From: Clostridia bacterium
GTDB lineage: Bacteria > Bacillota > Clostridia > Oscillospirales > CAG-272
NCBI GenBank assembly: GCA_017453005.1
Contig: JAFTKY010000092.1
Coordinates: 1-19,097 of the forward strand
Direction of reading: 5' to 3'
Length of the DNA stretch: 19,097 nucleotides
The position numbers and the translations under genes are program-made. Position 1 is the first letter of the stretch; each line of letters starts with the position of its first letter. The notes beneath the pieces are model-generated. The model saw only the letters and a list, made by a program, of their open reading frames with translations. It made no database searches and was not told where the DNA came from. Positions 5,837 through 19,097 of this stretch are shown here, piece after piece.

Positions 5837-6985
5837 ATGGAACTTGATCTGAATAAAATCCGAGAAGAAATAAACGCGACGGACAAAGAGATCGTGGAGC
5901 TGTTCAAGCAGCGCATGAATCTTGCGGCATCCGTTGCGGAATATAAAAAGCAGCACAATCTCCCCGTACTTGACGCGGCGCGCGAGCGCGCTCTGCTCGC
6001 TAAAATTGCGGACATGGCAGGCGAGGAATTTGAAAAATACGCGCTTATTCTCTACCACACGATGATGGACGTATCAAAGTCCTATCAGCACACAAAGCTC
6101 ACCCCCGAGTCGCAGATGTATAACGGCATACAAGCCTCTCTTGACAGAACGCAAAAGGTATTCCCCAAGAAAGCCAAGGTTGCGTGTCAGGGCGTTGAGG
6201 GCGCGTACTCGCAGATAGCGGCAGGAAGATTTTTTGAGCTTCCCGCGATAAATTATTACCCCTCGTTTGACGCCGTATTTTCGGCAATCGAGCGAGGTGA
6301 GTGTCGCTACGGCGTGCTTCCCATTGAGAACAGTACGGCAGGCTCGGTCAAAAAGGTTTACGAGCTTATGATACGCCACAATTTCAATATCGTAAAATCT
6401 CTGCGCCTCAAAATCGACCACAATCTGCTCGTCAGACGCGGCGTAAAGCTTGAAAGCATCAAGGAAATCGTCTCTCACGAGCAGGCAATAAATCAATGCT
6501 CGGGATTTCTCGGCATGCTTGAGGGCGTCAAGATAACGGTCTGTGAAAATACGGCTGTGGCGGCAAAAATGGTCGCGCAGTCCGAAAGAGACGATATCGC
6601 GGCTCTGTCCTCGCGCGACTGCGCCGAGCTTTACGGACTTGAAAATATTGCTCCCGCCGTTCAGGACATGGGCAACAACTACACGAGATTTATCTGCATT
6701 TCCAAGGAGCCCGAGATTTATCCCGGCGCCGACAAATGCTCTATAATGCTCGTCACGGCAAACCGTCCCGGTATGCTTTATAACGTGCTTTCCTGCTTCA
6801 ACGCGCTTGGTATCAATATGACCAAGCTCGAGTCCACGCCCATTCCCGAGCGTGACTTTGAGTCTATGTTCTACTTTGATTTCTCGGTGTCCGTCTACTC
6901 CGACGACCTAAAGCAGCTCCTTTGCGAGCTTGAGGCACGAAGCGAGCGCTTCCGTTTCCTCGGCGCGTATTCCGAAATACTCTGA
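5837..6985 (+). CDS. pheA: Bifunctional chorismate mutase / prephenate dehydratase (P-protein) with a C-terminal ACT domain.
   Basis: The N-terminal roughly 90 aa is an AroQ-class chorismate mutase helix bundle. It is followed by a prephenate dehydratase domain and an ACT domain with an ESTP-like LESTPIPER motif. AAAGGA precedes ATG 5837. The 5783 start would overlap the aroC end and lacks a ribosome-binding site. Confidence 0.88.
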   Translation: MELDLNKIREEINATDKEIVELFKQRMNLAASVAEYKKQHNLPVLDAARERALLAKIADMAGEEFEKYALILYHTMMDVSKSYQHTKLTPESQMYNGIQASLDRTQKVFPKKAKVACQGVEGAYSQIAAGRFFELPAINYYPSFDAVFSAIERGECRYGVLPIENSTAGSVKKVYELMIRHNFNIVKSLRLKIDHNLLVRRGVKLESIKEIVSHEQAINQCSGFLGMLEGVKITVCENTAVAAKMVAQSERDDIAALSSRDCAELYGLENIAPAVQDMGNNYTRFICISKEPEIYPGADKCSIMLVTANRPGMLYNVLSCFNALGINMTKLESTPIPERDFESMFYFDFSVSVYSDDLKQLLCELEARSERFRFLGAYSEIL

Positions 6986-7001
6986 TAACCGAGGCAAGAC
7001 T

Positions 7002-8249
7002 ATGATAACAAACAGAAAAGAACAGGTCTGCGGACTTGTGGGCGAGCGGCTCGGACACAGCTTTTCCCCACAGATACACGCGTGTCTGTGCGACTACTCA
7101 TATTCGCTTTTTGAGATGCCCGAAAGTGAGCTTGAGGGCTTTATCAAGGGCGACGGATACCACTCCGTAAACGTGACTATTCCCTACAAGATGGCGGTCA
7201 TGCCTTATCTTGACGTCATTTCCGAGGCGGCGCAGAAAATCGGCTCGGTCAATACCGTCACACACCTGCCCGACGGCAGGCTGTACGGCGACAACACCGA
7301 CTTTTACGGCTTTATCCATATGATAAAGAGCGCAGGTCTTGATTTGTCGGGCAAGAGCGTGCTTATACTCGGCACGGGCGGTACGTCACGGACGGCAACG
7401 GCGGCTTGTGAGGCTTTGGGTGCGAAAAGCATAAGGCTCGTCTCTCGCAAAGGCGACTTGACCTACGGCAACGCACATACACTCTGCCCCGAGACGCAGA
7501 TAATAATCAACTGCACGCCCGTCGGAATGTACCCCGGCAACCTCGTCTCCCCGATAGATATTCAAAAATTCCCCGCGCTTGAGGGCGTAGCGGACGTTAT
7601 ATTCAACCCCGCAAAAACGCAGCTTTTACTTGATGCGGAAGGGCTGGGGCTGAAAACAGCTAACGGACTTCCCATGCTCGTCGCGCAGGCAAAGCGCGCT
7701 TGCGAGATATTCACGGGCGAGGACATACCCAACAGCGAAATTGACCGTATCACTCGCATAATCGCGGGGCAAACTACGAATATAGTCCTTGTCGGTATGC
7801 CCGGCTGCGGCAAGACCACGGTTGGAAAAATACTTGCGGAGCGTCTCGGTCGCGAGCTTGTTGACACGGACGAGCTTGTAGTGGAGCTTGCGGGCAAGTC
7901 AATTCCCGAAATCTTTGCCGAGCAGGGCGAGGAGGGCTTCCGCGCGATAGAACACACGGCGGTATGCATGGCGGGCAAGAAAAGCGGCGTCATAATTGCC
8001 ACGGGCGGCGGTGCTGTCACACGCCCCGAGAACTACGCTCCCCTGCACCAAAACGGAAAAATTGTTTTTATAACGAGAGACATATCACTTCTGGCAAAGG
8101 ACGGCAGACCGCTCTCGCTCTCGGGCGACCTTCGTGCCATGTACGAAAAAAGACTTCCCTCATACAGAGAATTTTGCGACATCGAGGCGGCAAACACCAC
8201 GCCGCACGAGACGGCAGAACAAATAATAAAAATATTTTTGGAGGACTGA
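7002..8249 (+). CDS. aroE-aroK: Fused shikimate dehydrogenase (N-terminal, about 265 aa) and shikimate kinase (C-terminal, about 150 aa).
   Basis: The N-terminal domain has AroE-like substrate and NADP motifs (VTIPYK, GDNTD, GTGGTSR). The C-terminal domain has the shikimate kinase Walker A GMPGCGKTTVGK followed by a DTD motif. The frame is continuous with no stop between the domains. GAGG lies 7 nt before ATG 7002. Confidence 0.85.
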   Translation: MITNRKEQVCGLVGERLGHSFSPQIHACLCDYSYSLFEMPESELEGFIKGDGYHSVNVTIPYKMAVMPYLDVISEAAQKIGSVNTVTHLPDGRLYGDNTDFYGFIHMIKSAGLDLSGKSVLILGTGGTSRTATAACEALGAKSIRLVSRKGDLTYGNAHTLCPETQIIINCTPVGMYPGNLVSPIDIQKFPALEGVADVIFNPAKTQLLLDAEGLGLKTANGLPMLVAQAKRACEIFTGEDIPNSEIDRITRIIAGQTTNIVLVGMPGCGKTTVGKILAERLGRELVDTDELVVELAGKSIPEIFAEQGEEGFRAIEHTAVCMAGKKSGVIIATGGGAVTRPENYAPLHQNGKIVFITRDISLLAKDGRPLSLSGDLRAMYEKRLPSYREFCDIEAANTTPHETAEQIIKIFLED

Positions 8250-8252
8250 CAA

Positions 8253-8687
8253 ATGAAGCTTCTTATCATCAACGGCCCGAACATCAACCTTCTGGGACTT
8301 CGCGAGCCCGCCATCTACGGCTCGCAGAATTACTCCGCCCTTTGCACGCTCGTCAAAAAGACCTGTGCCGAGCTTGATATTGAGTGCGAGCTGTTTCAGT
8401 CCAACCACGAGGGCGCGATAGTTGACAAGATCCAGGACGCATACGGTGTCTTTGACGGAATAGTCATAAACCCCGCGGCATACACGCACACCTCCATAGC
8501 GATACTCGACGCGCTCAAGGCGGTGTCTATCCCCACAGTCGAAATTCACATCTCCGACGTGTCCAAGCGCGAGGACTTCCGCCAGATATCCTACGTCTCA
8601 AAGGTAGCAGTCAAGACCTTCATGGGACTTGGCATCGAGGGATATAAGCATGCGATTGAGTATCTTAATGAGTTTTTGAATAAATAA
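8253..8687 (+). CDS. aroQ: Type II 3-dehydroquinate dehydratase.
   Basis: A 144-aa protein with the LNGPN.N.LG.REP..YG N-terminal signature and the H..D motif of type II dehydroquinase. Confidence 0.9.
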   Translation: MKLLIINGPNINLLGLREPAIYGSQNYSALCTLVKKTCAELDIECELFQSNHEGAIVDKIQDAYGVFDGIVINPAAYTHTSIAILDALKAVSIPTVEIHISDVSKREDFRQISYVSKVAVKTFMGLGIEGYKHAIEYLNEFLNK

Positions 8688-8735
8688 AGATAAAGTTTTA
8701 TCCTTCTTCAACCAAGAAGGTTGAACAACATCATA

Positions 8736-8790
8736 GCCTTCCCCAAGCAGGGGAAGGTGGCACGAGCCTGCGAGTGACGGATGAGGATGC
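8736..8790 (+). repeat. Inverted, degenerate copy of a GC-rich hairpin module (CCTTCCCC-aagca-GGGGAAGG ... GGATGAGGATG).
   Basis: An 8-bp perfect hairpin at 8737-8757. The 8779-8789 GGATGAGGATG segment is the reverse complement of 8834-8844. Together with 8831-8883 it forms a roughly 150-bp quasi-palindrome around an AT-rich 44-nt centre. Confidence 0.55.
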
Positions 8791-8830
8791 CAATAACAGT
8801 AAATATATTATAATACGCTGTCTGCTTCAG

Positions 8831-8892
8831 CAACATCCTCATCCACCGCTAACGCGGTCCCCCTTCCCCCACTTGGGGAAGGCTTTTTTGTT
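8831..8892 (+). terminator. Repeat module copy 1, ending in the intrinsic terminator of the aro operon.
   Basis: AACATCCTCATCCACCGCTAACGCGGTCCCCCTTCCCC-cactt-GGGGAAGG, followed by CTTTTTTGTTG. It has a small hairpin ACCGC/GCGGT and an 8-bp GC hairpin (8862-8882) followed by a T-tract. It is about 92 percent identical to the module at 13695-13745. Confidence 0.7.
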
Positions 8893-8961
8893 GAATGAAT
8901 ACAAAACGCGAAATCAAAATCTATGCAAAACAGAGAAACTAAAAAAATCGCGTCTCCACTC

Positions 8962-8990
8962 TTGACGGTCAAGTGACCGTGTGATATAAT
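8962..8990 (+). promoter_or_regulatory. Sigma-A promoter of the MerR-like gene, with a 16-bp perfect palindrome (ACGGTCA-ag-TGACCGT, 8965-8980) in the spacer.
   Basis: TTGACG at 8962-8967, a 17-nt spacer, then TATAAT at 8985-8990 with TGa extended -10. The palindrome overlaps the -35 element and the spacer. Confidence 0.55.
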
Positions 8991-9015
8991 ATTAGTGAGA
9001 TCAGGAGGTGAGAAA

Positions 9016-9570
9016 ATGTCAACGACTTTTCCGGGAACGACGATAGAAGTTCTTGAAATTCAAAAATCAAGCTCGCGTAAATTATTCGACGGCATATTTG
9101 CCACGGGAGGACTGACGCTCTCGCAGGTATCACTCATGACGGGCATTGAGCCGTACGCGATACAGAACTGGGTGAAGCGAGGATTTGTGGGCTCGCCCAA
9201 AAAGCGTCTTTATTCCCGAAATCAATTTTCAAGGATCGTAATAATCAACATGCTCCGCGAGGCGCTGCAGATAGAAAAGATATGCGACCTCATCCGTATC
9301 ATCAGCGGCGTGCTTGACGACGAGAGCGACGACCTTATTTCCGCAGACGAGCTTTATCACAGATACGTTGATCTTTTGGCGGAGCACAAAATAGACTTCA
9401 ACGATAAAAGCTCGATAACCGAGGCGGCAGACCGCACGGCGCGTGAATTTACGGACAGCGACGCGCAGACGCAGAAAAAGCTCTCAAGCATTCTGCAAAT
9501 TATTCTGTACGCTCACGCGGCGTCCCAGCTCCGCAAAAAGGCCGACGACATTTTTGCGACCTTGAAATAA
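9016..9570 (+). CDS. Small cytoplasmic protein with an N-terminal MerR-like helix-turn-helix (possibly a DUF1836-type regulator).
   Basis: LTLSQVSLMTGIEPYAIQNWVKRGFVGSPKKR matches the MerR-family HTH pattern (xxGxxxxxIRxYexxGLLxPxxR). AGGAGGTGA precedes ATG 9016. The C-terminal region is helical. Function is not established. Confidence 0.5.
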   Translation: MSTTFPGTTIEVLEIQKSSSRKLFDGIFATGGLTLSQVSLMTGIEPYAIQNWVKRGFVGSPKKRLYSRNQFSRIVIINMLREALQIEKICDLIRIISGVLDDESDDLISADELYHRYVDLLAEHKIDFNDKSSITEAADRTAREFTDSDAQTQKKLSSILQIILYAHAASQLRKKADDIFATLK

Positions 9571-9614
9571 AACTTTAATTCAAAAACTAATAATCATTAC
9601 GAAAGGAAAATATC

Positions 9615-10274
9615 ATGTTTATAGTTGATTGGTGGAATTCCATAGGACTTGCCGCGCAAATATTCGCGTGCATTGCAATTCCCTCTACGCTTATTCTGCT
9701 CGTGCAGACGGTTTTGATGTTCCTCGGCATCGGAGACGATGCGGATGTTGACGCCGACGGCATCGGCGAGGGCGCAGATTTTATCGGTGACGATATTGAT
9801 ACCGACGTATCCGAGGGAGTTTTCGGTGACGGTGACGTTGACGACGTCTCCGACGGCGCGGGAATGGACAGTCTTCGCTTCTTTACCTTCCGCGGCATCA
9901 TCGCGTTCCTCGTTGTATTCGGCTGGGTAGGACTTGCGATGTCCTCGGGCGATATTGCCCTTTACATCACCATACCCGTAGCAGCTCTGTGCGGTCTTTG
10001 TATGATGCTCTTTATCGCCGTACTTATCCGCGCGGTAATGAGACTTCGCGGCGACGGCAACGTCGACAACCGCAACGCAGTCGGCACGTCGGGTGTAGTT
10101 CATCTCACCATCCCCGCGCTTCGCACGGGTACGGGCAAGGTACACCTCATGCTTCAGGGCTCGTACGTTGAGCGCGACGCGGTAACGGACGACGAGACCT
10201 CCCTTCCCACGGGCAGCGAGATAGTCGTCGTAGGCGTCAGCGGACAGACTACGCTTATAGTAAGAAAAAAGTAA
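9615..10274 (+). CDS. NfeD-family (YuaF-like) membrane protein with a C-terminal OB-fold domain.
   Basis: Hydrophobic segments (FACIAIPSTLILLVQTVLMF, IIAFLVVFGWVGLAM, ITIPVAALCGLCMMLFIAVLI) followed by a C-terminal beta-rich NfeD-like domain (GTSGVVHL...GSEIVVVGVSGQTTLIV). An Asp-rich acidic insert lies between TM1 and TM2. It sits immediately upstream of a flotillin gene, as in yuaF-floT. Confidence 0.75.
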   Translation: MFIVDWWNSIGLAAQIFACIAIPSTLILLVQTVLMFLGIGDDADVDADGIGEGADFIGDDIDTDVSEGVFGDGDVDDVSDGAGMDSLRFFTFRGIIAFLVVFGWVGLAMSSGDIALYITIPVAALCGLCMMLFIAVLIRAVMRLRGDGNVDNRNAVGTSGVVHLTIPALRTGTGKVHLMLQGSYVERDAVTDDETSLPTGSEIVVVGVSGQTTLIVRKK

Positions 10275-10305
10275 AACAAAATTTTAAATAAATGGAGGAA
10301 AAATT

Positions 10306-11694
10306 ATGAATCCCGCAATTATCTTTTTGATTTGTGCAATCGCGCTGGTGCTTGTATCCTTTATCGCATGGATATGCTCAAGATACAAGAAATGCCCCTC
10401 TGACAAGATCATGGTCATCTACGGTTCGATAGGTAAGAACAACGACGGCACGAACAGAAGCGCAAAGTGTATTCACGGTGGCGCTGAATTCGTTATTCCC
10501 GTTTTCCAGTCGTACGCTTATCTCGACCTGACGCCCATATCTATCTCGGTCGACCTCAAGAACGCGCTCACACGTCAGAACATTCGTATCGACGTTCCCT
10601 CTCGCTTTACCGTTGGTATCTCCACGGAGACGGGCGTTATGCAGAACGCGGCTGAAAGACTTCTCGGTCTCCAGATGACCGAGGTACAGGAGCTTGCAAG
10701 AGATATTATCTTCGGTCAGCTCCGTCTTATCATCGCGACCATGGATATTGAAGAAATAAATACTGACCGCGACAAGTTCCTCGCGGCTGTAAGCTCTAAC
10801 GTTGAAACAGAGCTTAAAAAGATAGGTCTTCGTCTTATCAACGCGAACGTAACGGATATCACCGACGAGTCGGGATACATAGCGGCTCTCGGTAAGGAAG
10901 CTGCTGCAAAGGCTATCAACGACGCAAAGAGGAGCGTTGCCGAGCAGGAGCGCGACGGTTCTATCGGTGAAGCAAACGCGCAGATGGACCAGAGAATCAA
11001 GGTTGCAGAGGCAAACTCCGTAGCTATTCAGGGTGAAAACGAAGCAAAGATGAAGATCGCTATGTCCGACGCCGCGCTCAAGGAGAAAGAGGCAGAGGCA
11101 AAGAAGATCGCAACCACCGCAGAAAAGATCCAGGCTGCAAAGGCACTCGAAGAGTCCTACGCTGCAGAGCAGGCAGCCGAGCTTGCAAGACGCTCCAAGG
11201 AGCAGGCAACCCTCGAGGCTGACATTATCGTTCGCGCAGAGGCAAAGAAAAAGGAAATGGAGCTTGCTGCTGAGGCAGAGGCTGAACAGATGCGTAGACG
11301 CGCACAGGGTGAGGCTGACGCTATTTACGCGAAGATGCAGGCAGAGGCTCGCGGTGTCGAGGAGATACTCAAAAAGCAGGCTGCAGGTCTTGCTGAGGTC
11401 GTTAAGTCCGCAGGCGGCGATCCCGATTCCGCTCTCCGTCTCCTTATAGCTGATAAGCTCGAGGACCTCATGAGAGTTCAGGTCGACGCTATAAAGAACA
11501 TCAAGATAGACAAGGTCACTGTATGGGACGGCGGACAGACCGCAAACGGAAAGACGTCTACCGCAAACTTCATCTCGGGTATGATGAAGTCCGTTCCCCC
11601 TCTTGATGAGGTGTTCACAATGGCAGGTATGCAGCTCCCCGCAATTCTAGGTAAGAAGACCGAGGACGCAGTTGAAACGACCTCCGAGGAATAA
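10306..11694 (+). CDS. floT: Flotillin-like SPFH/band-7 protein (FloT/YuaG type).
   Basis: N-terminal TM, an SPFH domain, then a long Ala/Glu/Lys-rich coiled-coil (EA-repeat region) typical of flotillins. GGAGG precedes ATG 10306. Confidence 0.85.
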   Translation: MNPAIIFLICAIALVLVSFIAWICSRYKKCPSDKIMVIYGSIGKNNDGTNRSAKCIHGGAEFVIPVFQSYAYLDLTPISISVDLKNALTRQNIRIDVPSRFTVGISTETGVMQNAAERLLGLQMTEVQELARDIIFGQLRLIIATMDIEEINTDRDKFLAAVSSNVETELKKIGLRLINANVTDITDESGYIAALGKEAAAKAINDAKRSVAEQERDGSIGEANAQMDQRIKVAEANSVAIQGENEAKMKIAMSDAALKEKEAEAKKIATTAEKIQAAKALEESYAAEQAAELARRSKEQATLEADIIVRAEAKKKEMELAAEAEAEQMRRRAQGEADAIYAKMQAEARGVEEILKKQAAGLAEVVKSAGGDPDSALRLLIADKLEDLMRVQVDAIKNIKIDKVTVWDGGQTANGKTSTANFISGMMKSVPPLDEVFTMAGMQLPAILGKKTEDAVETTSEE

Positions 11695-11718
11695 TTGAAA
11701 ATTGCCGAATAAATCAAA

Positions 11719-11755
11719 CGGGCAGTCGCGGCGTTGCCGCGACTGCCCGTATTGT
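11719..11755 (+). terminator. Intrinsic terminator-like hairpin after floT.
   Basis: CGGGCAGTCGCGGC-gtt-GCCGCGACTGCCCG, a 14-bp perfect stem followed by TATTGT. The U-tract is weak. Confidence 0.55.
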
Positions 11756-11890
11756 AACCACGTTAGCCTTCTCCGGCGGAGTTGCACAGACTACAGGAGA
11801 GTACCATCACCGAACATAAGAATGTTGAACAATTACCCGTATTCTACCAATAAATCACTTTTGAATTGAAAGATATCATTCATAAGTTGC

Positions 11891-11919
11891 TTGAATTAAA
11901 TTGTACCGTATGCTATAAT
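11891..11919 (+). promoter_or_regulatory. Sigma-A promoter of the XRE-family regulator gene.
   Basis: TTGAAT at 11891-11896, a 17-nt spacer, then TATAAT at 11914-11919 preceded by TGc. GGGAG ribosome-binding site precedes ATG 11950. This places the true start at 11950, not 11866. Confidence 0.55.
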
Positions 11920-11949
11920 GTAAGCAAACAACCAAACAGGGAGAACAAA

Positions 11950-13482
11950 ATGAAAATTCAGATCGCAGATAACATAAAAAGATTTCGCATAGCAAGCGGA
12001 TATACTCAAAGTGATCTTGCAGTACTTTTGTCTGTTTCTCCTCAAGCGGTGAGCAGATGGGAAAACGGACAGGCTTTTCCTGATATAACCTTTTTACCTT
12101 TGCTTGCGAAATATTTGAAGGTGTCCATTGATGAGTTGATGGGAATAAAAGGGCAGCAAAACGAAAGTTTAAAAAAAGAGCTGCGCGAACGCAGACAAGC
12201 AGTCATAGACGATGATTCCGAAAAGCTTCAAAATGAGCTTCGTATTCTTGAAATATACGAAGAGTTAGGACATGCAGAGCTTTTTTATTTGATCGACTAT
12301 TTTAAGCAGCTGATGCTTGTGAAAAACAACGCAGTGGTAAAGATCAAAGATTTGGAAGATCGAATTGCCAATGCTCGGCAAATGATCCGGGATCGCTTGA
12401 GAACATCCGGTATGTGCGACAGAATATGGTTGCTAAATACGGTAGCCTCTTGTGAGGAGGAAGACAAATTGGCGATCTGGGCAGATGAATATGAGTTCCC
12501 CGAATATATGAGAACAAACTTTTGGGACAAATTGCTACTGTCAAGATATGACAAGGAAAAAAACACCTACAAACTAAATGCACAAAATCAAAAAATTTTA
12601 TATGAGCATATCCAAAATACCATTTATTATCTAACCGATAGTGTGTCTGGTGATATGAAGGAGCAGATGAATGACTTTCATGATCCGGAAAGATACAAAA
12701 TGGCGCTTGATACACTTGATCTGTACTCAACACGGGCAGACGATATCTTTTTGACCACGCGCATTATCGCTGAGGTGAGATACGCAGAGGCACTTTTGAT
12801 CAACGGATGTACTGAGGAAAGTCTTGCTATGTTCTCACAGGCAGGCAAACATCTTTTGCTACTGTATCATTTGCCTGATGGCAGTGTGCTTCACGGTTCT
12901 GTTCCTGTATTGAGTACGGTACACATCGCAATTGATTATTCGAAGGATAAGCTTGAAAAATGCGTGTTCAACCTGAATACATATGATAAAAATCCACAGT
13001 TTGACCAAATTCGCGAGGATAAAAGATTTGTGGCGTATATGGAATCAAGGGCAAAATTTCTTCCACATAATTGCAAAAGCTGGGTGGATGAGATTGGAAA
13101 TGATATGGTTGATACGCGGTGGAAAATGCTTCTGAATAGAGCAAAGAAAGAGACAGAGACACTTTCTGACGGCAATGTCGTGGTGATGCTGACCATCAAT
13201 GGCGCGGTTGACGCCATCTCGTTTCAGAATCTCAATTCCGTCATTGAGGCGGAGGGTGCGATGAAGTTTTTGATTGAGAAAAAGAAAAATGGTGATGCCA
13301 GAATCGAACGTTTGATTTGTATGTGGCACGATGGCAGTATTGATCTTCCCTCATTTGCTTTCAGAGAAGCACTTTTGTCTGTTGAAAACGCAAATGTTTC
13401 GACTCAAATGCTTTTAAACGGGATAAAGGGGTATGTTGTTAAGACAGTAAAAGCAACAATGCCTAAAGGATACAAAACATAA
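11950..13482 (+). CDS. XRE-family (Cro/cI-type HTH) transcriptional regulator with a roughly 440-aa helical C-terminal domain (RNPP/TPR-like architecture).
   Basis: N-terminal IKRFRIASGYTQSDLAVLLSVSPQAVSRWENGQAFPDITFLPLLAKYLKVSIDEL is a canonical HTH_XRE. The rest is uncharacterised. The gene is clearly more AT-rich than its neighbours. Confidence 0.7.
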   Translation: MKIQIADNIKRFRIASGYTQSDLAVLLSVSPQAVSRWENGQAFPDITFLPLLAKYLKVSIDELMGIKGQQNESLKKELRERRQAVIDDDSEKLQNELRILEIYEELGHAELFYLIDYFKQLMLVKNNAVVKIKDLEDRIANARQMIRDRLRTSGMCDRIWLLNTVASCEEEDKLAIWADEYEFPEYMRTNFWDKLLLSRYDKEKNTYKLNAQNQKILYEHIQNTIYYLTDSVSGDMKEQMNDFHDPERYKMALDTLDLYSTRADDIFLTTRIIAEVRYAEALLINGCTEESLAMFSQAGKHLLLLYHLPDGSVLHGSVPVLSTVHIAIDYSKDKLEKCVFNLNTYDKNPQFDQIREDKRFVAYMESRAKFLPHNCKSWVDEIGNDMVDTRWKMLLNRAKKETETLSDGNVVVMLTINGAVDAISFQNLNSVIEAEGAMKFLIEKKKNGDARIERLICMWHDGSIDLPSFAFREALLSVENANVSTQMLLNGIKGYVVKTVKATMPKGYKT

Positions 13483-13533
13483 AGAATTTTTTGAATAAAT
13501 TTTATTAAACCCCGATTACCTGTAGGTGCTCTC

Positions 13534-13617
13534 ATTTGCTGGCAAATCCATTGGTCGTCCGCAATAATTGATAATTGGGTCCAAGCGGATGTGCGATGCT
13601 TTATTTGCTTCGCAAAT
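13534..13617 (+). promoter_or_regulatory. Pair of palindromic operator-like sites, ATTTGC-tg-GCAAAT (13534-13547) and ATTTGC-ttc-GCAAAT (13603-13617).
   Basis: Two near-identical inverted repeats with conserved flanks (tcATTTGC..GCAAATcc), 69 bp apart. They lie between the XRE regulator gene and the membrane-protein gene. A tandem ATAATTG-ATAATTG lies between them. Confidence 0.4.
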
Positions 13618-13694
13618 CCCCTCTGTCTCGACCACGGGTCGCGACATCTCCCCTACGACCGAATAATCAAAACATTATTAGCAATCAAAAATGG

Positions 13695-13745
13695 TAACAC
13701 CTCATCCACCGCTAAAGCGGTCCCCCTTCCCCTCAAGGGGAAGGC
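13695..13745 (+). repeat. Repeat module copy 2 (AACACCTCATCCACCGCTAAAGCGGTCCCCCTTCCCC-tcaa-GGGGAAGG), located in a 5' UTR.
   Basis: Near-identical to 8831-8882. It has the same two hairpins, ACCGC/GCGGT and CCTTCCCC/GGGGAAGG. Here it is not followed by a T-tract. Instead it is followed by GAAAGGAG and ATG 13765. Confidence 0.65.
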
Positions 13746-13764
13746 TCTCACGAAAGGAGTACCC

Positions 13765-14310
13765 ATGAAAAAAATATATTTCAAAAAAATCAAGCGCGGC
13801 ATAGGCTACGCGCTCATCATGTATCTCATATACGGCGTCGGCGCGGATATTTTAGTCACGCTGTCAAATTTTTTCAAGGAGTATCCTTTTGTTCAGCTTC
13901 TCATAACCGTCGGCATCCCCGCGACGATTCTCTTTTGCGTCGCGTCATATTACCGAATAAATGACAGCGAAAAATTCAAGGCGTATAACCGCGCCGTCCC
14001 GTACGATAGGTTAAAAATAAAGGACGACCTGCTCTACACCTTGAAATCCCCCGACCTGCACGGCGATATTCTCGTGGCACTTACGCTTATCGGCGTATAT
14101 CTTGTGCCCTCCATAGCGATCCCAATCATACGCGTAGGCGGTGCGAGGGCGATTCCCGTAGCGCTTCTGTTGACGTTCGTGACACTGCTTGTCGCGATGC
14201 TGTTTTACACCGCCGCAGATATTATTTCGTGGACGGTCACGCACAAGCACTATCTCCTTGACCGCGATATCGTGGTCATGGACGAGGATATGGTGAATAA
14301 AACCCCGTAA
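13765..14310 (+). CDS. Small integral membrane protein of unknown function (about 4 TM helices).
   Basis: GGAG lies 8 nt before ATG 13765. There are four hydrophobic segments. The longer ORF-track start at 13591 would translate through the repeat module and is unlikely. Confidence 0.5.
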   Translation: MKKIYFKKIKRGIGYALIMYLIYGVGADILVTLSNFFKEYPFVQLLITVGIPATILFCVASYYRINDSEKFKAYNRAVPYDRLKIKDDLLYTLKSPDLHGDILVALTLIGVYLVPSIAIPIIRVGGARAIPVALLLTFVTLLVAMLFYTAADIISWTVTHKHYLLDRDIVVMDEDMVNKTP

Positions 14311-14313
14311 AAA

Positions 14314-14342
14314 AACCAACGGAAATATCCCGTTGGTTTTTT
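14314..14342. terminator. Bidirectional intrinsic terminator between convergent genes.
   Basis: AACCAACGG-aaatatc-CCGTTGGTT, a 9-bp stem. It is flanked by AAAAA upstream and TTTT downstream. Confidence 0.7.
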
Positions 14343-14380
14343 CTATTAACTTGTACGTATGCTTTCATCCTTTACCGATT

Positions 14381-14881
14381 TCAGCCCTTCCCGCGCCTTT
14401 CGTACTCCCGAAACCACTCGTCCGCAGGGTTATCGTGTATATAGGTTACAGTTCTGTTTTTCATATCTATAACGAATTCCTTCTGGACGTCGTCAAACCC
14501 GTAAGGCGCGCATGCGTCATGCATATCAACGCAGTCATCTATCATAGTACTCATACCCCAGCGATACACCGCAGAGTAATACGTTATTTTCAGAATGTCG
14601 CTGATCTGCGTCAGCCTTGAAAGCTCGTCAAGGAGATCCCTGCCCCAACCCGAGTAATGCACGGCACCCTTAAAAATCGGCAGGATCTCTTGCACCGTCT
14701 GTGCGCTCACAATCTCATTTTCTACTCCGTCATGCAATTTAGACGTGTAAGCGCCAAATTCACCGTTAACGGTTGAAAGTGTCATGTAATTATATTCTGA
14801 TGTTTCAGCATCCGTCAAATATCCCGATCCACTCATATATATCAACCTCATTTTAATTATTCGGGGCGCGATGCCCTCCAT
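14381..14881 (-). CDS. Hypothetical soluble protein.
   Basis: A 166-aa ORF with no recognisable motifs. AAAGG lies 5 nt before the ATG at 14881. An in-frame alternative start exists at 14851. A TGTCAA-17-extended -10 promoter on the minus strand sits at 14899-14927. Confidence 0.4.
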   Translation of the reverse strand: MEGIAPRIIKMRLIYMSGSGYLTDAETSEYNYMTLSTVNGEFGAYTSKLHDGVENEIVSAQTVQEILPIFKGAVHYSGWGRDLLDELSRLTQISDILKITYYSAVYRWGMSTMIDDCVDMHDACAPYGFDDVQKEFVIDMKNRTVTYIHDNPADEWFREYERRGKG

Positions 14882-14971
14882 TGCGCCTTTACGTATTTAT
14901 AGTAACATATTTTTTTGTGTATGTCAAGCAAGGCAAAGAAAACCGTCGGAGACGTTGCCTTTATTTTTTGG

Positions 14972-15000
14972 TTGACATTTTCCTTTTTTTATGGTATAAA
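14972..15000 (+). promoter_or_regulatory. Sigma-A promoter of the GH28-like gene.
   Basis: TTGACA at 14972-14977, a 17-nt spacer, then TATAAA at 14995-15000 preceded by TGg. GGAGG ribosome-binding site before ATG 15031. Confidence 0.6.
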
Positions 15001-15030
15001 AAAAGCAGAAGACTTTTATTGGAGGCAGAT

Positions 15031-16521
15031 ATGCTGATTATTCACAACGCGCCGTCGGGCGAGGCAAAATATTGCGGATATGATGTCAGAATAAACGGTG
15101 TAACGGCGTCGCCGTCTCTCTGTCGCGTGTCCGCAGTCCCATATAACACCGAGTGGCCCGGTCATCAGCGCCCTCTTGACCAGACCGAGGAGGCGGGTTT
15201 TTTGTCGTTCGAGTGTGACGGCGAGGTCAACGTTAGCATAACGTACAGCACTCCTCCGAGCGAGGTCACCGTGCGTCCGCTCTCCCGCGGCGTGAAGGCA
15301 AAAATTGACGGCAGTATCGCAAGCTTTACCCTGTCCGAGCTCGGCGCGTATACCGTTGAAGCCGACGGATACCACCACGCGTTGCATATTTTCTTGAACC
15401 CCATAAAGAGCTTTGAGAGCTACACCGACGGTGCGAAAACAGTCCTTCGCTACGGCGCGGGCATACACCGAATAGGACGTGTTGAGCTGCCCTCCGACAC
15501 CGCCGTAATAATTGACAGCGGCGCGTATATATACGGCTCGTTTTGTGCCGTATGCGCTCACAATATAAGTATATGTGGCTACGGTGTGATAGACGGCTCG
15601 TGCGAGGCGCGTGACAACGACAGCAGTCTGCTCCCCCTTGACTATTACGCCACCATTCCGCACGACCGCGGCGAAATACTTGACCTTATCCGCCGCCGAC
15701 ACTCACTTGACGGAATTTTGCGCTTTTACGATTGCGAGAACATTCACGTTGAGGGCGTGATAATGCGCGACAGCTCCACCTTCGCTGCCATTGCCGCAAG
15801 GTGCAAGCAGGTAATTTTTGAGAATGTCAAGGCGATAGGAATGTGGCGCTACAATTCCGACGGAATTGACCTTTTCAACTGCCGTGACTGTGTTATCTCG
15901 CACTGCTTTATGCGAAATTTTGACGATTGCATAGTCCTCAAGGGTATCTGCGGCTGGGATAATGAGAATATGGAAAATATTCTCGTCACTGACTGCGTCA
16001 CCTGGTGCGATTGGGGCAGAAACCTTGAAATCGGTGCGGAGACAAACGCGGACAGCTTCAAAAATATAACCTTCAAAAACTGCGATTGCATACACGGCTC
16101 GTCAATTTTTCTTGACATACACCACCACAACCGCGCCCACATTTCGGACGTGATATACGAAAATATCAATATCGAATATACTCGCCACCAGCTCTCGGAC
16201 GTATATCAAAGCGACATGAGCCTTCCCTATCCGCATGGGGACAAAATAACCCATCCCCTGCTCATAGGTATCCCTATTTACGCCTCGGGGCTTTTCTCCA
16301 AGGACGGCAAGCACGGTGACGTAAAGCATATAACCTTTAAGAATATAAATATCATCTCGGATATCCCCCTGCGCCCCATCGTAATGATACGTGGGCTTGA
16401 CACCGAGCATACCGTCTCGGACGTCACCCTTTCGGGTCTTATTCTGAACGGCACACCGCTCCGCACAAGCGATATTGACCTGGCGGTCAATGATTTTGCA
16501 GAGCACGTAAAGCATGAATAA
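15031..16521 (+). CDS. Glycoside hydrolase family 28-like protein (polygalacturonase/rhamnogalacturonase-type right-handed beta-helix). No signal peptide.
   Basis: GH28-like motifs: NSDGIDL (NTDGID), FDDCIVLKG (GDDC.A.K) and CIHGSSIF (GHG.SIGS-like). The repetitive Cys/Asn/Asp-rich segments are typical of parallel beta-helix coils. The start is chosen at the ribosome-binding-site-supported ATG 15031. Confidence 0.6.
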   Translation: MLIIHNAPSGEAKYCGYDVRINGVTASPSLCRVSAVPYNTEWPGHQRPLDQTEEAGFLSFECDGEVNVSITYSTPPSEVTVRPLSRGVKAKIDGSIASFTLSELGAYTVEADGYHHALHIFLNPIKSFESYTDGAKTVLRYGAGIHRIGRVELPSDTAVIIDSGAYIYGSFCAVCAHNISICGYGVIDGSCEARDNDSSLLPLDYYATIPHDRGEILDLIRRRHSLDGILRFYDCENIHVEGVIMRDSSTFAAIAARCKQVIFENVKAIGMWRYNSDGIDLFNCRDCVISHCFMRNFDDCIVLKGICGWDNENMENILVTDCVTWCDWGRNLEIGAETNADSFKNITFKNCDCIHGSSIFLDIHHHNRAHISDVIYENINIEYTRHQLSDVYQSDMSLPYPHGDKITHPLLIGIPIYASGLFSKDGKHGDVKHITFKNINIISDIPLRPIVMIRGLDTEHTVSDVTLSGLILNGTPLRTSDIDLAVNDFAEHVKHE

Positions 16522-16524
16522 AAG

Positions 16525-16556
16525 AAAGCCAACGGACACCGTTGGCTTTGTTTGTT
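16525..16556. terminator. Intrinsic terminator between convergent GH28 and spoIVB genes.
   Basis: AAAGCCAACGG-acac-CCGTTGGCTTT, an 11-bp stem, followed by GTTTGTT. An A-rich tract lies upstream, so it may act bidirectionally. Confidence 0.7.
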
Positions 16557-16569
16557 CCCGTCCTTTGCG

Positions 16570-17634
16570 TTAACGCAACGCCGCAGGCATATTCTCAAGC
16601 ATATTCTCAATAAATATCCCGTAGCCGACGGTGGGGTCATTTATCATAACGTGCGTCACCGCACCCACGAGCTTGCCATTCTGGATTATGGGGCTGCCGC
16701 TCATTCCCTGCACTATTCCGCCGGTTTTGTCGATAAGCTTTTGGTCCTTGACCGTGACCGTAAAGCATTTTGAGCCGCATTCGTCGTACTTTACAGATGA
16801 TATCTCGATATTGTACCTACACGCACCGTTGCCGTCAAGCGTACATATTATATACGCCGCTCCGCTCTTGACCTCACTCTTAAGTCCCACGGGGATGGGC
16901 TTGCCTACGCCCTCGGGACATTTTAAAAACATTCCGTACACGCCGCAGTCGGTGTTGCCAACGAGAGACCCAAGCTTATTCGTGCCGATAATGCCCTTTA
17001 TCTCACCCGGCACACCCGCAACTCCCTTTTTTACACCGCTGACCGTAACGTCCGAAACGACGCCGCGCGTCATTTTTATGAGCTTTCCGCTGTCCGCGCT
17101 GCATATTCCGTGTCCAAGTCCCGCAAACGAGTACGTTTCGGGATCAATATAGGTAACCGTTCCTATTCCCGCGCCGCTGTCACGTACGCAGAGCCCCGCC
17201 ATATATTTTCCCTCGCTGACTGAATATTTCGGAGAAAGCCTGAGACTTTTTTCCGCGCCCGCTCGGGTGAACGTAACGGCTATGCTCTTGCCCGACGAGC
17301 TGTCTATCAACGATATAAAATCGCTTGTGTCCCTCGGCTCATGCCCGTCAATTTTCGTGATAATATCCCCCGTCCTCAGTCCCGCTTGAGATGCAGGGCA
17401 GATATTTCCGTCCTTCGTGTCCACATCGCAAAATCCCACGACCACAATTCCCGCCATGCTGAATTTTACCCCGAAGGGTATTCCCCCGGGGATGAGCTTT
17501 AGTCCCGCGTATTTATTTTGAGACCTTGACGTTGCGCCGACGGTAACTCCCATACACACCGAAAGCGCAAAAACCAGACACAAAAACAGACATATCGCGG
17601 AGGCTGCAAAATGTTTGTTTTTATTTTTTATCAT
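16570..17634 (-). CDS. spoIVB: Stage IV sporulation protein B (SpoIVB, S55 serine peptidase) with a PDZ domain.
   Basis: N-terminal signal/TM, a PDZ-like region (GLRTGDIITKIDGHEP) and the catalytic GMSGSP serine motif with the conserved His region. AAGGA ribosome-binding site before the ATG at 17632-17634 (minus strand). Confidence 0.8.
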   Translation of the reverse strand: MIKNKNKHFAASAICLFLCLVFALSVCMGVTVGATSRSQNKYAGLKLIPGGIPFGVKFSMAGIVVVGFCDVDTKDGNICPASQAGLRTGDIITKIDGHEPRDTSDFISLIDSSSGKSIAVTFTRAGAEKSLRLSPKYSVSEGKYMAGLCVRDSGAGIGTVTYIDPETYSFAGLGHGICSADSGKLIKMTRGVVSDVTVSGVKKGVAGVPGEIKGIIGTNKLGSLVGNTDCGVYGMFLKCPEGVGKPIPVGLKSEVKSGAAYIICTLDGNGACRYNIEISSVKYDECGSKCFTVTVKDQKLIDKTGGIVQGMSGSPIIQNGKLVGAVTHVMINDPTVGYGIFIENMLENMPAALR

Positions 17635-17734
17635 AACGTAGTATTCCTTTTCCCTCTTGATTGCAGTCTTTTGACCACACTATTATTTTGGATTTCTTCA
17701 CGCGGTTTATGTTTAACAATTATTGAACTTTGAG

Positions 17735-17762
17735 TTGACAAATTCTTTTTTTGTGATAAAAT
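17735..17762 (+). promoter_or_regulatory. Sigma-A promoter upstream of the 17803 gene.
   Basis: TTGACA at 17735-17740, a 16-nt spacer, then TGaTAAAAT (extended -10, 17754-17762), in an AT-rich divergent intergenic region. GGGAG ribosome-binding site at 17787-17791. Confidence 0.5.
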
Positions 17763-17802
17763 TATTATGTATTTATTATATAAATGAAGGGAGTGAATAT
17801 GC

Positions 17803-18639
17803 ATGGCAGATTTTGGCGGTGCGTACTATCCGCTGTCCGAGCGCGAGACGAAAAAATTCCGGAAAATTATTCTTGATAATCTTGTAAAATCTGCCTCTGT
17901 TGAGCTTGCCGAGAGTGACGAATACGACGGCATCGGAAGGCTTTCCGAAAAGCAGATGCACTCCGCGCTAAAATCATTTATTTGCTCCGACGAAAGTAAG
18001 CACGAGATAAAAATCCAAGGCTCGCCCCTTTATATTCCAAGTGATGCGGAAAATACCAAAAACAGAAAATACGTAGCCGACGTGCTTGACGGAGATACTA
18101 TATACGAAATACAGACGGGCGGTTTTTCGCCTTTGCGCGACAAAATAAAGTGGATACTTGAAAACACGGCGTACAGAGTGGTAGTAATACACCCAATCGC
18201 CGAGACTAAATGGATAAGAAAAATTGACGAGAACGGCAAAATTTCACCCAAGCGCAAGTCAAATAAGCACGGCAGAGTCCAGGACATCGCAAACGAGCTT
18301 TATTTTTTCAAGGATTTTCTCACGTCTCCGAGGTTCTCACTCATGATACTCATGATGGAGGCTGAGCAATACGTAAAGCCTCAAAAACGCGGCAGAAGAC
18401 TGCAAAAATACGAGATGATACCCGTCTCACTTCTGGGCGCGTATCTCTTCAAAAACGCGGCAGATTACGCCTGGTTTCTGCCCGACACGCTCCCCGATAC
18501 CTTCACCGTCAAGGATTACTCAAGTCACGCAAAAATATACGGAATGGACGCGTATTCCATAACGAAAACCTTGTGTGATATCGGTCTTATCGAGGAGTGC
18601 GGTACTATCGGACGCGCCCGCGCGTACCGCAAAAAATAA
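17803..18639 (+). CDS. Hypothetical protein with a possible PD-(D/E)xK-like nuclease core and a C-terminal winged-helix-like tail.
   Basis: A 278-aa ORF. The VADVLDGDTIYEIQTGG segment loosely resembles a restriction-endonuclease-like D...(D/E)xK/Q core. The C-terminus (LCDIGLIEECGTIGRARAYRKK) looks HTH-like. No confident family assignment. Confidence 0.4.
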   Translation: MADFGGAYYPLSERETKKFRKIILDNLVKSASVELAESDEYDGIGRLSEKQMHSALKSFICSDESKHEIKIQGSPLYIPSDAENTKNRKYVADVLDGDTIYEIQTGGFSPLRDKIKWILENTAYRVVVIHPIAETKWIRKIDENGKISPKRKSNKHGRVQDIANELYFFKDFLTSPRFSLMILMMEAEQYVKPQKRGRRLQKYEMIPVSLLGAYLFKNAADYAWFLPDTLPDTFTVKDYSSHAKIYGMDAYSITKTLCDIGLIEECGTIGRARAYRKK

Positions 18640-18673
18640 AATTTCCAAAAGGTGAATTATTTTAAAAAAGGAC

Positions 18674-18702
18674 TTGACAAACCCGCCTCACTGTTGTATA
18701 AT
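18674..18702 (+). promoter_or_regulatory. Perfect consensus sigma-A promoter of tRNA-Ser.
   Basis: TTGACA at 18674-18679, a 17-nt spacer, then TATAAT at 18697-18702. It lies 44 nt upstream of the tRNA 5' end. Confidence 0.65.
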
Positions 18703-18745
18703 AGTTAGGCAAGTTCATTTAAACGGTCGACTTGCGACAAGTACA

Positions 18746-18836
18746 TGGAGATGTACTCAAGAGGCCGAAGAGGCGCCCCTGCTAAGGGTGTAGGTCGGGT
18801 TACCGGCGCGAGAGTTCAAATCTCTCCATCTCCGCC
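18746..18836 (+). tRNA. tRNA-Ser (anticodon GCU), class II with a long variable arm.
   Basis: Acceptor GGAGATG pairs with CATCTCC. U8; D-arm CTC/AAGAGGCCGAA/GAG; anticodon stem CGCCC/GGGTG with loop CTGCTAA (anticodon GCT at 18780-18782); a 19-nt variable arm; T-arm GAGAG/TTCAAAT/CTCTC; discriminator G plus encoded CCA. It closely parallels bacterial tRNA-Ser(GCU). Confidence 0.85.
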
Positions 18837-18844
18837 AACAAAAA

Positions 18845-18876
18845 AGGAACTTTTGTCTACCAAAAGTTCCTTTTTT
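18845..18876 (+). terminator. Intrinsic terminator of tRNA-Ser.
   Basis: GGAACTTTTG-tctac-CAAAAGTTCC, a 10-bp perfect stem, followed by TTTTTTG. Confidence 0.8.
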
Positions 18877-18883
18877 GTTTATC

Positions 18884-19097
18884 CAAGCCGCAGGCTTTGC
18901 ATATCATCGCCGCGCGAAGCGTGGTGTATATCATCAAGGGCGGCTCGCCGCCCTTGTATCTCATCACGCGCCAGCGTGCATCTTACCTGCGCCTTGATGA
19001 TATACAATGCTTCGCATTGATGATATACCGCAACAAGTTGCGGATGATATACACGCCTTCGGCGTGATTGGGATGCGAGGATGCGAAAATCTCTTGA
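18884..19097. repeat. Array of seven unique GC-rich perfect hairpins punctuated by the 9-mer TATATCATC and its reverse complement GATGATATA. The array runs to the window edge.
   Basis: The seven hairpins are: AAGCC-gca-GGCTT (18884-18896); CCGCGC-gaa-GCGTGG (18909-18923); CAAGGGCGG-ctcg-CCGCCCTTG (18934-18955); CACGC-gcca-GCGTG (18964-18977); CAATGC-ttc-GCATTG (19004-19018); CCGCAAC-aa-GTTGCGG (19027-19042); CACGCC-ttc-GGCGTG (19051-19065). The 9-mer copies are cATATCATC 18899-18907, TATATCATC 18926-18934, TATcTCATC 18956-18964, then GATGATATA at 18995-19003, 19018-19026 and 19042-19050. Confidence 0.6.

Follow-up and report, generated by a model that had tools for sequence, protein, structure and literature searches.

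In a 19,097-nucleotide (nt) stretch of DNA from a Clostridia bacterium (GenBank assembly GCA_017453005.1, contig JAFTKY010000092.1, positions 1 to 19,097; hereafter the window) we identified three copies of a short intergenic module of two hairpins, which, judged by its sequence, is the "type I" member of a superfamily of short dispersed mirror repeats composed of a pyrimidine head, a linker and a pyrimidine/purine hairpin. We regard it as highly probable that the module is a dispersed repeat of the BoxC/PIT kind with a specific association to genes encoding small DUF559 nucleases. To the complete reading, in which such a nuclease would also mobilise the modules, we assign a probability of about 0.5.

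The module and its copies in the window

The module consists of the head CCTCATCC, hairpin 1, a linker, hairpin 2 (CCTTCCCC-loop-GGGGAAGG) and a final C. The pattern CCTCATCC-N8-30-CCTTCCCC-N3-7-GGGGAAGG matched the window three times, at 8837-8882 (+), 13700-13744 (+) and 8737-8786 (-), and was not met once in 200 dinucleotide shuffles; a filter-free search with a covariance model revealed no fourth copy in the 19 kb. The copies, designated A, B and C, and their parts are as follows.

8837-8882, + strand: copy A, exact pattern match (covariance model R1, 46.8 bits, E 7e-11)
8837-8844, + strand: head of copy A, CCTCATCC
8845-8858, + strand: hairpin 1 of copy A, ACCGC-TAAC-GCGGT, with the linker CCC next
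8862-8882, + strand: hairpin 2 of copy A, CCTTCCCC-CACTT-GGGGAAGG
13700-13744, + strand: copy B, solo and non-coding, exact pattern match (R1, 56.2 bits, E 3e-13)
13700-13707, + strand: head of copy B
13708-13721, + strand: hairpin 1 of copy B, ACCGC-TAAA-GCGGT, with CCC next
13725-13744, + strand: hairpin 2 of copy B
8737-8786, - strand: copy C, inverted partner of A, exact pattern match (R1, 53.7 bits, E 1.3e-12)
8726-8893: head-to-head doublet, in which 50 nt of non-conserved spacer (8787-8836) separate copy C from copy A

Repeat finding showed that copies A and B have a common 33-nt core of 97% identity, followed by the identical 8-bp hairpin CCTTCCCC/GGGGAAGG. The two differ in one extra T before CCTCATCC, in one base of the hairpin 1 loop (C/A) and in the loop of hairpin 2 (CACTT vs TCAA). 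Copy C has the head and hairpin 2 of copy A, its own hairpin 1 (GTCACTCGCAGGCTCGTGCCA) and the linker CCA in place of the CCC of A and B. An earlier note, made from the letters of the window, had described one module at two sites, and the same module is indeed seen at 8831-8884 (A) and 13697-13747 (B); the inverted copy that it had taken for degenerate is real but is a full module, scoring between A and B. As RNA, copy A folds with -23.7 kcal/mol (z -4.2) and copy B with a z of -2.9. The doublet folds as single-stranded DNA with -43 kcal/mol (z -8.0); its central stem pairs GGATGAGGATG (8779-8789) with CATCCTCATCC (8834-8844), and its inverted repeat reaches outward to CAAC/GTTG. In addition, GTTGAA stands on both sides of the doublet, at 8720-8725 and 8890-8895.

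A dispersed repeat family with a covarying hairpin

The same pattern was searched in one genome per species, where at least 120 stretches matched, with at least 149 exact copies in at least 120 genome loci, and in viral contigs, where it matched at least 120 loci (L209-L328, IMG/VR contigs, 1.07 Mb). The module thus belongs to a dispersed family of the REP/BOX/ERIC kind, as the earlier note had proposed, and its alternative of a local duplication falls with the at least 120 stretches found elsewhere by the genome search. The hosts among the matches listed are mostly Clostridia (Oscillospiraceae, Acutalibacteraceae, Christensenellales, Lachnospiraceae, Pseudoflavonifractor and Gemmiger, as metagenome-assembled genomes (MAGs) and isolates); the others include Selenomonadales, Rhodanobacter, Luteimonas, Roseiarcus, a Rhizobiales MAG, Paludisphaera, Flexilinea and Bifidobacterium simiarum, so that Proteobacteria, Planctomycetota, Chloroflexota and Actinomycetota are represented beyond the Clostridia. 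Around the seeding modules we counted 140 sites, of which 83 were solo, 53 double and 4 triple, solo copies being the commonest form. For carrier genomes we estimate about 23 further sites in each Mb, a density that points to some 50-70 sites in a genome.

Across the type I family the head and hairpin 2 are nearly invariant. Hairpin 1 occurs among the matches listed in 110 distinct sequences, which almost always pair though the pattern left 8-30 nt free, with a mean stem of 5.4 bp vs 3.5 in shuffles. In an alignment of 133 sequences, columns 18-39 contain the pairs CG 31, AU 27, GC 23 and UA 17, and the covariation of 0.165 compares with 0.057 in shuffles (0/500 reach 0.165) and with at most 0.065 for slid partners. 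Hairpin 1 is thus hypervariable yet paired, with all four Watson-Crick pair types in comparable numbers. Hairpin 1 is 12-29 nt long and its lengths are not multiples of three; for this reason, and since the conserved ribosome-binding site (RBS) and ATG downstream leave copy B outside the coding sequence, a protein-coding repeat was rejected. A known structured RNA was rejected as well: Rfam 15 gave no match to the window at gathering thresholds, and in E-value mode it returned microRNA models of long hairpins far below thresholds, thus nothing relevant in either mode.

Where two copies are adjacent (n=105 pairs), the heads-inward arrangement is dominant: (-)(+) was observed 56 times, (+)(-) 18, (+)(+) 17 and (-)(-) 14 times. 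The resulting doublets, of which that of the window is typical, measure about 150 nt; their ends are inverted repeats, their centre is not conserved, and in empty doublets the spacer is most often 41-60 nt long. Within a doublet, hairpin 1 always differs between the two arms. An obligatory pairing of an "A-type" (ACCGC..GCGGTCCC) with a "G-type" hairpin 1, on the model of the type A plus type B pairs of TMECO, was considered and rejected for want of a significant excess (17 observed, 13.5 expected, p 0.17).

Type-specific association with DUF559 nuclease genes

[quoted passage not shown] The product is a single-domain protein of about 120 amino acids (aa) belonging to Pfam PF04480, DUF559 (E 1e-27 to 1e-32), and its gene abuts a module in 7/120 of the module-seeded loci listed. 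The covariance model located heads-inward inverted modules flanking the gene in L001, L047, L051 and L020. Since the start codon lies 5-10 nt past GGATGAGG(TG), the module head (GGATGAGGTG on the gene strand) serves as the RBS of the DUF559 gene, and the reading frame can end inside the second module (...ACC TCA TCC ...). The gene-carrying unit thus formed is about 450 bp long and has the same ends as the doublet.

The association was also examined in the reverse direction, in 80 metagenome loci chosen by DUF559 homology alone and then searched with the module model. Modules were found in 61/80. A (-) module lies just upstream of the gene in 41/78 loci, in 24 of them within 4 nt of the ATG, a (+) module lies at or over the stop codon in 26/78, and 15 loci have modules on both sides. 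More distant DUF559 genes carry other modules in the same place: type II, GCCTCCCTT-loop-AAGGGAGG-TGG-[hairpin]-AC-GGAGGGATTG-ATG, type III, GCCTCTCCC-loop-GGGAGAGG-TGG-[hairpin]-AC-GGAGAGGG-N6-ATG, and several rarer forms in the same position relative to the gene. The types are mutually exclusive: no type II or III module was found in the 862 kb of type-I-seeded loci listed, vs 23 and 7, respectively, in the DUF559-seeded loci. They also cluster with the DUF559 protein tree. In the same 862 kb of module flanks, spot checks of ORFs and Pfam domains gave no transposase. The association is not universal in the Pfam family, because a DUF559 gene on a Thermoactinomyces plasmid has no comparable flanking repeats.

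The DUF559 profile matches PDB 3hrl, an endonuclease-like protein of N. gonorrhoeae (E 9e-20), and, at E 7e-4, PDB 3r3p, in which the homing endonuclease I-Bth0305I is represented by its catalytic domain; DUF559 is a Vsr-like relative of both, with the PD-(D/E)xK fold. In an alignment of six DUF559 proteins the D of VDFY, the E-x-D of ELDG and an H are invariant.

Several further observations were made at these genes. Tandem arrays of modules in the same orientation, with a period of about 118-165 nt and up to 8 modules in 5.3 kb, stand on both sides of some DUF559 genes (L147 2042-3321, L149 1027-1320, L170 2185-3072). At L112 (5172-6065) the DUF559 reading frame continues into a domain of the RNase H kind and yields 297 aa, either as a fusion or by read-through, and L050 (237-539) holds a DUF559 pseudogene with an in-frame stop. 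The gene of the 3hrl homologue in N. gonorrhoeae (L334) has on both sides a repeated segment of about 95 nt (431-524 and 1044-1137), each with AAAACAGCCTGCACAAGCTGTTTT and a pyrimidine/purine hairpin CCCTCTCCCTGTGGGA(A)AGAG...AGAGAGAGGG.

Occupied doublets, with a gap of 351-500 nt, and empty ones, with about 50 nt, have the same heads-inward geometry, which together with the homology to the I-Bth0305I catalytic domain would suit a free-standing homing endonuclease gene that parasitises pre-existing repeats and whose homing site is the centre of the empty doublet. In a study of programmed inversions, "DUF559 domain-containing protein" is also enriched among the products of segments predicted to be invertible or flanked by inverted repeats (odds ratio 14.3; PMC9881135), a signal that genes lying between inverted modules would give. 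Homing nevertheless appears quite unlikely to us. Beyond GGATGAGG/CCTCATCC, just 2-9 nt beside each head are mutually complementary in empty doublets, and the spacer sequences are unrelated, so that no conserved candidate for a homing site is present and the spacers were rejected as remnants of a deleted DUF559 gene. Many doublets would be expected to be occupied, whereas there is about one DUF559 gene per 40 or so exact modules, and the E. coli homologue ycjD is single-copy. The likeness to EDxHD/Vsr-like homing endonucleases such as I-Bth0305I comprises the homologous catalytic domain and a small gene in a repeated, target-like context; DUF559 differs in having neither an intron or intein nor an extra DNA-binding domain, and in being present apparently as one gene per genome amid many repeats. 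In the searchable literature we did not find a link between DUF559 and repeats, BoxC included, the enrichment among predicted invertible genes being the only hint.

The mirror rule and kinship with BoxC/PIT elements

Read on the complementary strand, the head of the module mirrors the purine arm in hairpin 2. When the triads G*G-C, A*A-T and T*A-T were counted as valid, GGATGAGG against GGGGAAGG of type I gave 7/8 valid triads, and 8/8 with the variant arm GGAGAAGG; types II and III gave 8/8 by the rules of the purine motif. Head and arm co-vary across the types, GGGGAAGG/GGAGAAGG occurring with GGATGAGG, AAGGGAGG with GGAGGGAT, GGGAGAGG with GGAGAGGG, and others likewise. Among hairpins of the form Y8-loop-R8 in DUF559 loci, 7-8 of 8 triads were obtained on the 3' side in 86/182 vs 14/176 on the control side, about half being the maximum to be expected because each palindromic hairpin was scored in both orientations.

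We know of no function, origin or mobilising activity that has been assigned to BoxC/PIT elements. They have been described since the early 1990s, Bergler 1992 and Hoyne & Maher 2000 being among the sources named. BoxC/PIT/TMECO was defined as an "intrastrand triplex motif" with the consensus CCCTCNCCC-N3-6-GGGNGAGGG-N3-GGGNGAGGG (Holder et al. 2015, PMC4666352). The same study counted 23 TMECO copies in K-12, always intergenic, without strand bias, often in inverted pairs and at loci that vary between strains; it found no mobility gene nearby and no mobility function, and its text does not include Clostridia or Firmicutes (PMC4666352).

The module follows the three-block rule of these elements, in which blocks 1 and 2 are complementary and block 3 mirrors the purine block: besides its pyrimidine arm and its purine arm it has another block of purines, which on the complementary strand is the mirror of the first. 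Further shared traits are the intergenic position, tens of copies per genome, the lack of strand bias in chromosomes, the inverted pairs, rearrangement between strains and the lack of a nearby transposase; an E. coli TMECO pair moreover adjoins the DUF559 gene ycjD, just as types I-III flank Clostridial DUF559 genes. The exception is the strong strand bias of module copies in viral and mobile-element contigs. The module and TMECO differ in the blocks themselves (CCTTCCCC/GGGGAAGG/GGATGAGG vs CCCTCNCCC/GGGNGAGGG/GGGNGAGGG), in loop 2 of the motif, which spans 12-30 nt as a covarying hairpin in the module vs 3 nt in TMECO, in hosts, which are mainly Clostridia for the module, and in the one mismatched triad of the eight in type I. 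The published consensus matched none of the type I, II or III modules examined, and the TMECO consensus matched only L335 (E. coli) and L108 among 336 loci. Because loop 2 is a hairpin of 12-30 nt, the published ITxF search, which allowed loops of 1-6 nt, missed the Clostridial modules. On this comparison of sequences the module is a structural relative or variant of the BoxC/PIT triplex-motif repeats and not TMECO itself, and by analogy it may form a putative triplex with a hairpin in loop 2.

TMECO elements and ycjD in E. coli

The E. coli DUF559 gene ycjD is a single-copy gene (median 1 per genome) present in 3378/5426 complete genomes (62%). Directly after it stand copies of CCCTCACCC-CAA-CCCTCTCCC-loop-GGGCGAGGG, among them two exact TMECO matches directly 3' of the gene, and TMECO 9 has been placed between fabI and ycjD (Holder supplement, PMC4666352). 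Upstream (L335 551-595), an inverted repeat with 19 perfectly matched bp, TCACCTCATTCTGACAAGA-N7-TCTTGTCAGAATGAGGTGA, reaches to the start codon, and its gene-proximal arm (AATGAGGTG-ATG) is the RBS. The ends of this repeat, CACCTCAT/ATGAGGTG, resemble the type I head, and the predicted structure would occlude the RBS.

A 261-nt query that carries the TMECO copies was taken from the region downstream of ycjD; in E. coli genomes the median number of places matching it is 14. From the records as ranked by their match to the query we sampled 60 at an even spread and retained 59 after exclusion of one plasmid record. With the ycjD locus present (37 records) 8-22 places matched (median 15), vs 1-14 (median 4, many with 1-3) where it was absent (22 records). 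The lower counts without ycjD, with 9-14 places kept in some of these genomes, are compatible with a slow decay after loss of the enzyme, as reported for REPINs, and equally with a role of the enzyme as a guardian, which is discussed below.

Orientation of the copies and a possible role in RNA

The copies are intergenic; those that seemed to lie inside an ORF were at ORF edges or within spurious ORFs. Among the bacterial loci listed, 22 copies in tandem gene contexts were co-oriented vs 24 anti-oriented, 17 contexts were divergent vs 15 convergent, and by purine skew the copies were distributed 8 vs 8. The tabulation of positions relative to genes, proposed by the earlier note, thus gives intergenic copies without a preferred orientation, and a strand-specific cis-regulatory RNA in bacteria was rejected on these counts.

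In the viral and mobile-element contigs, the copies on one contig share their orientation in 28/31 contigs, and solo copies follow the purine-rich coding strand in 109 cases vs 5. Many of these contigs are probably related plasmid-like or integrative-and-conjugative-element-like elements; L250 and L230, for example, encode DnaD/DnaB/ParA/ParB-type genes and hold modules at syntenic positions. The orientation counts are therefore not independent. Selection acting on RNA in compact one-strand genomes may account for the bias, as may a step of the spread that depends on the strand. In L226 (3457-3841, 6278-6764, 8394-8579) clusters of modules alternating as (-)(+)(-)(+) lie between co-oriented genes, with (+) copies near the consensus and diverged (-) copies, similar to the BIME clusters of E. 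coli.

These counts bear on an explanation in which the module acts in RNA, as a strand-specific terminator, as a stem-loop (perhaps a triple helix of RNA) that stabilises the 3' or 5' end, or as a site of processing, and is kept by selection for expression. Besides the viral bias, it draws on copy A, which presents a canonical hairpin with a T-tract, on runs of at least 4 T after 16% of family copies vs 3.6% of the background, and on the fact that pyrimidine-motif triplexes can form in RNA (introduction of PMC4666352). The unbiased bacterial copies, the quasi-palindromic doublets, the lack of an Rfam match, the syntenic copies that enter the viral counts and the lack of promoter or terminator activity of E. 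coli PIT elements (Holder et al. 2015, PMC4666352) speak against it, as do the copies absent at orthologous sites of close relatives with unchanged genes (see below). We consider it the least credible of the explanations weighed here.

Strain comparison, the probable aro terminator and the 5' leader

The doublet C+A is located between aroQ and the promoter of a DUF1836 gene, in the following setting.

8253-8687, + strand: aroQ (type II dehydroquinase; Pfam PF01220, E 6e-57), final gene of the aro operon, followed by the doublet
8884-8889, + strand: T6 tract after hairpin 2 of copy A; terminator-like match 8862-8882 plus CTTTTTTGTT
8962-8990, + strand: strong promoter-like site TTGACG-17-TATAAT with TG, for the DUF1836/MerR gene (ATG 9016), identical in relatives

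As had been stated before, a T-tract follows the first copy (T6, 8884-8889) and none follows the second. A GC-rich hairpin with a direct T-tract at the 3' end of a transcription unit, as expected of an intrinsic terminator, is found at copy A only; copy B and 84% of the family members have no T-run. On its downstream side the terminator region is bounded by the promoter-like site.

Contigs of the same species, L329 and L330, lack the doublet, with the protein 99% identical and the downstream DNA 100% identical. Their spacer measures 187 nt vs 328 nt in the window, and a terminator GCCCTC-TCCCC-GAGGGC with T7 stands at the place of copy A hairpin 2 and T6. Four contigs of sister species (DUF1836 protein 80-85% identical, in three proteins) contain no module in 62.8 kb, and at the aroQ end ordinary species-specific hairpins precede a conserved TTTTGT tract. 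Since module-free relatives keep the T-tract behind hairpins of their own, the module stands where the native terminator hairpin would be, and the tract at 8884-8889 is ancestral and no part of the module. Hairpin 2 of copy A together with this tract probably terminates the aro operon. Termination is, however, a local by-product and not the purpose of the family, because T-runs follow just 16% of the copies and the related PIT elements of E. coli are reported to have shown no terminator activity (PMC4666352); a general targeting of terminators was rejected on the same percentage and because convergent contexts do not exceed divergent ones. Directly 5' of the doublet, at 8702-8720, stands a small separate hairpin, CCTTCTT-CAACC-AAGAAGG, which may be a leftover of an earlier terminator.

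The related contig L204 has no copy B at the orthologous site, although RBS and start codon are identical there; in L332 and L333 the copy is present, judged from an equal spacer of 282 nt. The dedicated role in the 5' untranslated region which the earlier note had attributed to it, as stabiliser, insulator or protein-binding site, is not supported, given this absence next to an unchanged RBS and start, the unbiased orientation of bacterial copies and the presence of only a weak promoter-like site upstream. We read copy B as a solo copy that was inserted into a 5' leader incidentally. As these comparisons indicate, module copies are gained, lost or replaced between strains.

A model of nuclease-driven spread and its competitors

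In the model to which we give even odds, the DUF559 nuclease would recognise the non-B structure or the sequence of its cognate module and would nick or cut there, whereupon repair or gene conversion by the host would copy modules to new sites. In the window, the doublet has replaced the native terminator hairpin of the aro operon. Module and nuclease would then parallel REP/REPIN elements and their RAYT transposase, with a different enzyme. Both systems comprise short palindromic repeats that lie between genes and number tens to hundreds, with the inverted doublet as one major form. In both, the repeats flank a nuclease gene that is usually single-copy, the repeat type co-varies with the enzyme clade, no target-site duplication arises, and the copy number is lower where the enzyme is missing. 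Unlike RAYT, which is an HUH/Y1 (IS200/IS605-like) transposase, the partner of the module is a Vsr-like PD-(D/E)xK nuclease of about 120 aa, and the modules lack the GTAG/CGTC tag and have two hairpins plus a mirror block per unit. The likeness is thus proposed as a functional analogy and not as membership.

Several observations weigh against this model. No DUF559 gene was found in the window, and the partnership is therefore inferred for this organism; nor was any found in the 1.07 Mb of viral and mobile-element loci listed, despite many modules. The sense bias of the solo copies in these elements counts here too, because a pure DNA-level, orientation-blind model does not predict it. One of the eight type I triads is invalid. 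The difference between E. coli records with and without ycjD (Mann-Whitney p 2e-8) comes without phylogenetic correction, and some genomes without ycjD keep 9-14 matching places. The strain comparison gave no clean empty site at the doublet, about 85 nt being replaced instead of a simple insertion, and no consistent direct repeat that would represent a target-site duplication was found at the outer flanks of 56 doublets. Finally, the link between DUF559 and the module consists of adjacency and co-variation, which processing, guarding or accumulation could also yield.

The lack of flank repeats and the replacement between strains also led us to reject a classical transposon with target-site duplication, and doublets do not present the terminal inverted repeats of a known insertion sequence plus target-site duplication that define miniature inverted-repeat transposable elements. 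The sole convincing candidate for a target-site duplication among the 56 doublets is a direct repeat of about 19 nt, CTGAGCGCGGC(A/G)GGAAAAG, at L099 (3101-3303). A 14-nt direct repeat at L180 is offset from the doublet ends.

The alternative that deserves most attention, although we hold it to be unlikely, is that the modules are selfish or neutral non-B repeats which spread otherwise (by replication slippage, recombination or another transposase), while DUF559 is a structure-specific guardian nuclease of the host that processes or repairs them, for instance by removing triplexes or hairpins that block replication, and whose own expression is set by the module in its 5' leader. Distorted DNA is the substrate of the Vsr family, whose members are repair nucleases. 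Vsr and DUF559 have been grouped together (PMC3424549). The use of the head as RBS would allow a structure-dependent autoregulation, the co-variation of module type with DUF559 clade and the fewer places without ycjD fit a guardian equally well, and mobile-element contigs carry modules without a DUF559 gene. On the other hand, nothing requires the gene of a guardian to be placed so precisely between two inverted modules, or to have its stop codon within one of these. The compact unit of about 450 bp resembles a mobile cassette, and the gene is accessory in E. coli, with a pseudogenised copy at L050.

Gene neighbourhood of the modules

The genes at 481-8687 form an operon of aromatic amino-acid (aro) biosynthesis, which encodes, from first to last, DAHP synthase, prephenate dehydrogenase, dehydroquinate synthase, EPSP synthase, chorismate synthase, chorismate mutase/prephenate dehydratase, shikimate dehydrogenase/kinase and dehydroquinase II. 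Downstream follow the genes for a DUF1836/MerR protein, an SPFH protein, a helix-turn-helix (HTH) protein, a 181-aa protein without assignment, a GH28 hydrolase and SpoIVB. From this gene content the source is a spore-forming member of the Clostridia. The window lies within a metagenome scaffold of 32.7 kb.

The RBS GGAG (13756-13759) of the 181-aa gene lies 12 nt and its ATG (13765) 21 nt downstream of copy B. Since the RBS and start are identical in a related species (CACGAAAGGAGTACCCATG), the start of the gene is fixed at 13765; the gene call of the assembly, 13591-14310 (239 aa, GTG start), extends across copy B. Family modules are readily translated into spurious N- or C-terminal extensions such as "...PPSPQGEG...". 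In the spacer between the HTH gene and the 181-aa gene, a segment of about 60 nt, GCTTTATTTGCTTCGCAAATCCCCTCTGTCTCGACCACGGGTCGCGACATCTCCCCTACG (window 13600-13662), is reverse-complemented in L204 (about 10510-10570) between collinear, nearly identical coding DNA; this segment beside copy B is a small inversion or an invertible element.

Implications

Triplex motifs with one loop built as a hairpin abound in Clostridia, gut and rumen lineages among them, and in their mobile elements. While the triplex-motif design of BoxC/PIT was known, the systematic and type-specific association with DUF559 genes, including ycjD of E. coli, is new as far as the searchable literature shows, and it makes the origin and maintenance of these repeats accessible to experiment. 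Modules mark recombination-prone intergenic sites and can replace native terminators. Tentatively, and with slightly less than even odds, we extend the partnership further: small DUF559 nucleases may be the cognate enzymes of triplex/mirror-repeat elements across bacteria, YcjD for BoxC/PIT, its Clostridial relatives for types I-III and the Neisseria homologue for the repeats beside its gene, in a second, REP-RAYT-like partnership that persists vertically and whose enzyme would be a PD-(D/E)xK nuclease recognising non-B DNA. If this holds true, the "genomic instability" reported at TMECO loci (PMC4666352) would be explained, with a gene-carrying unit of only some 450 bp, and DUF559, a large family of unknown function, would gain a role in a second domesticated repeat-enzyme partnership besides that of REPIN and RAYT.

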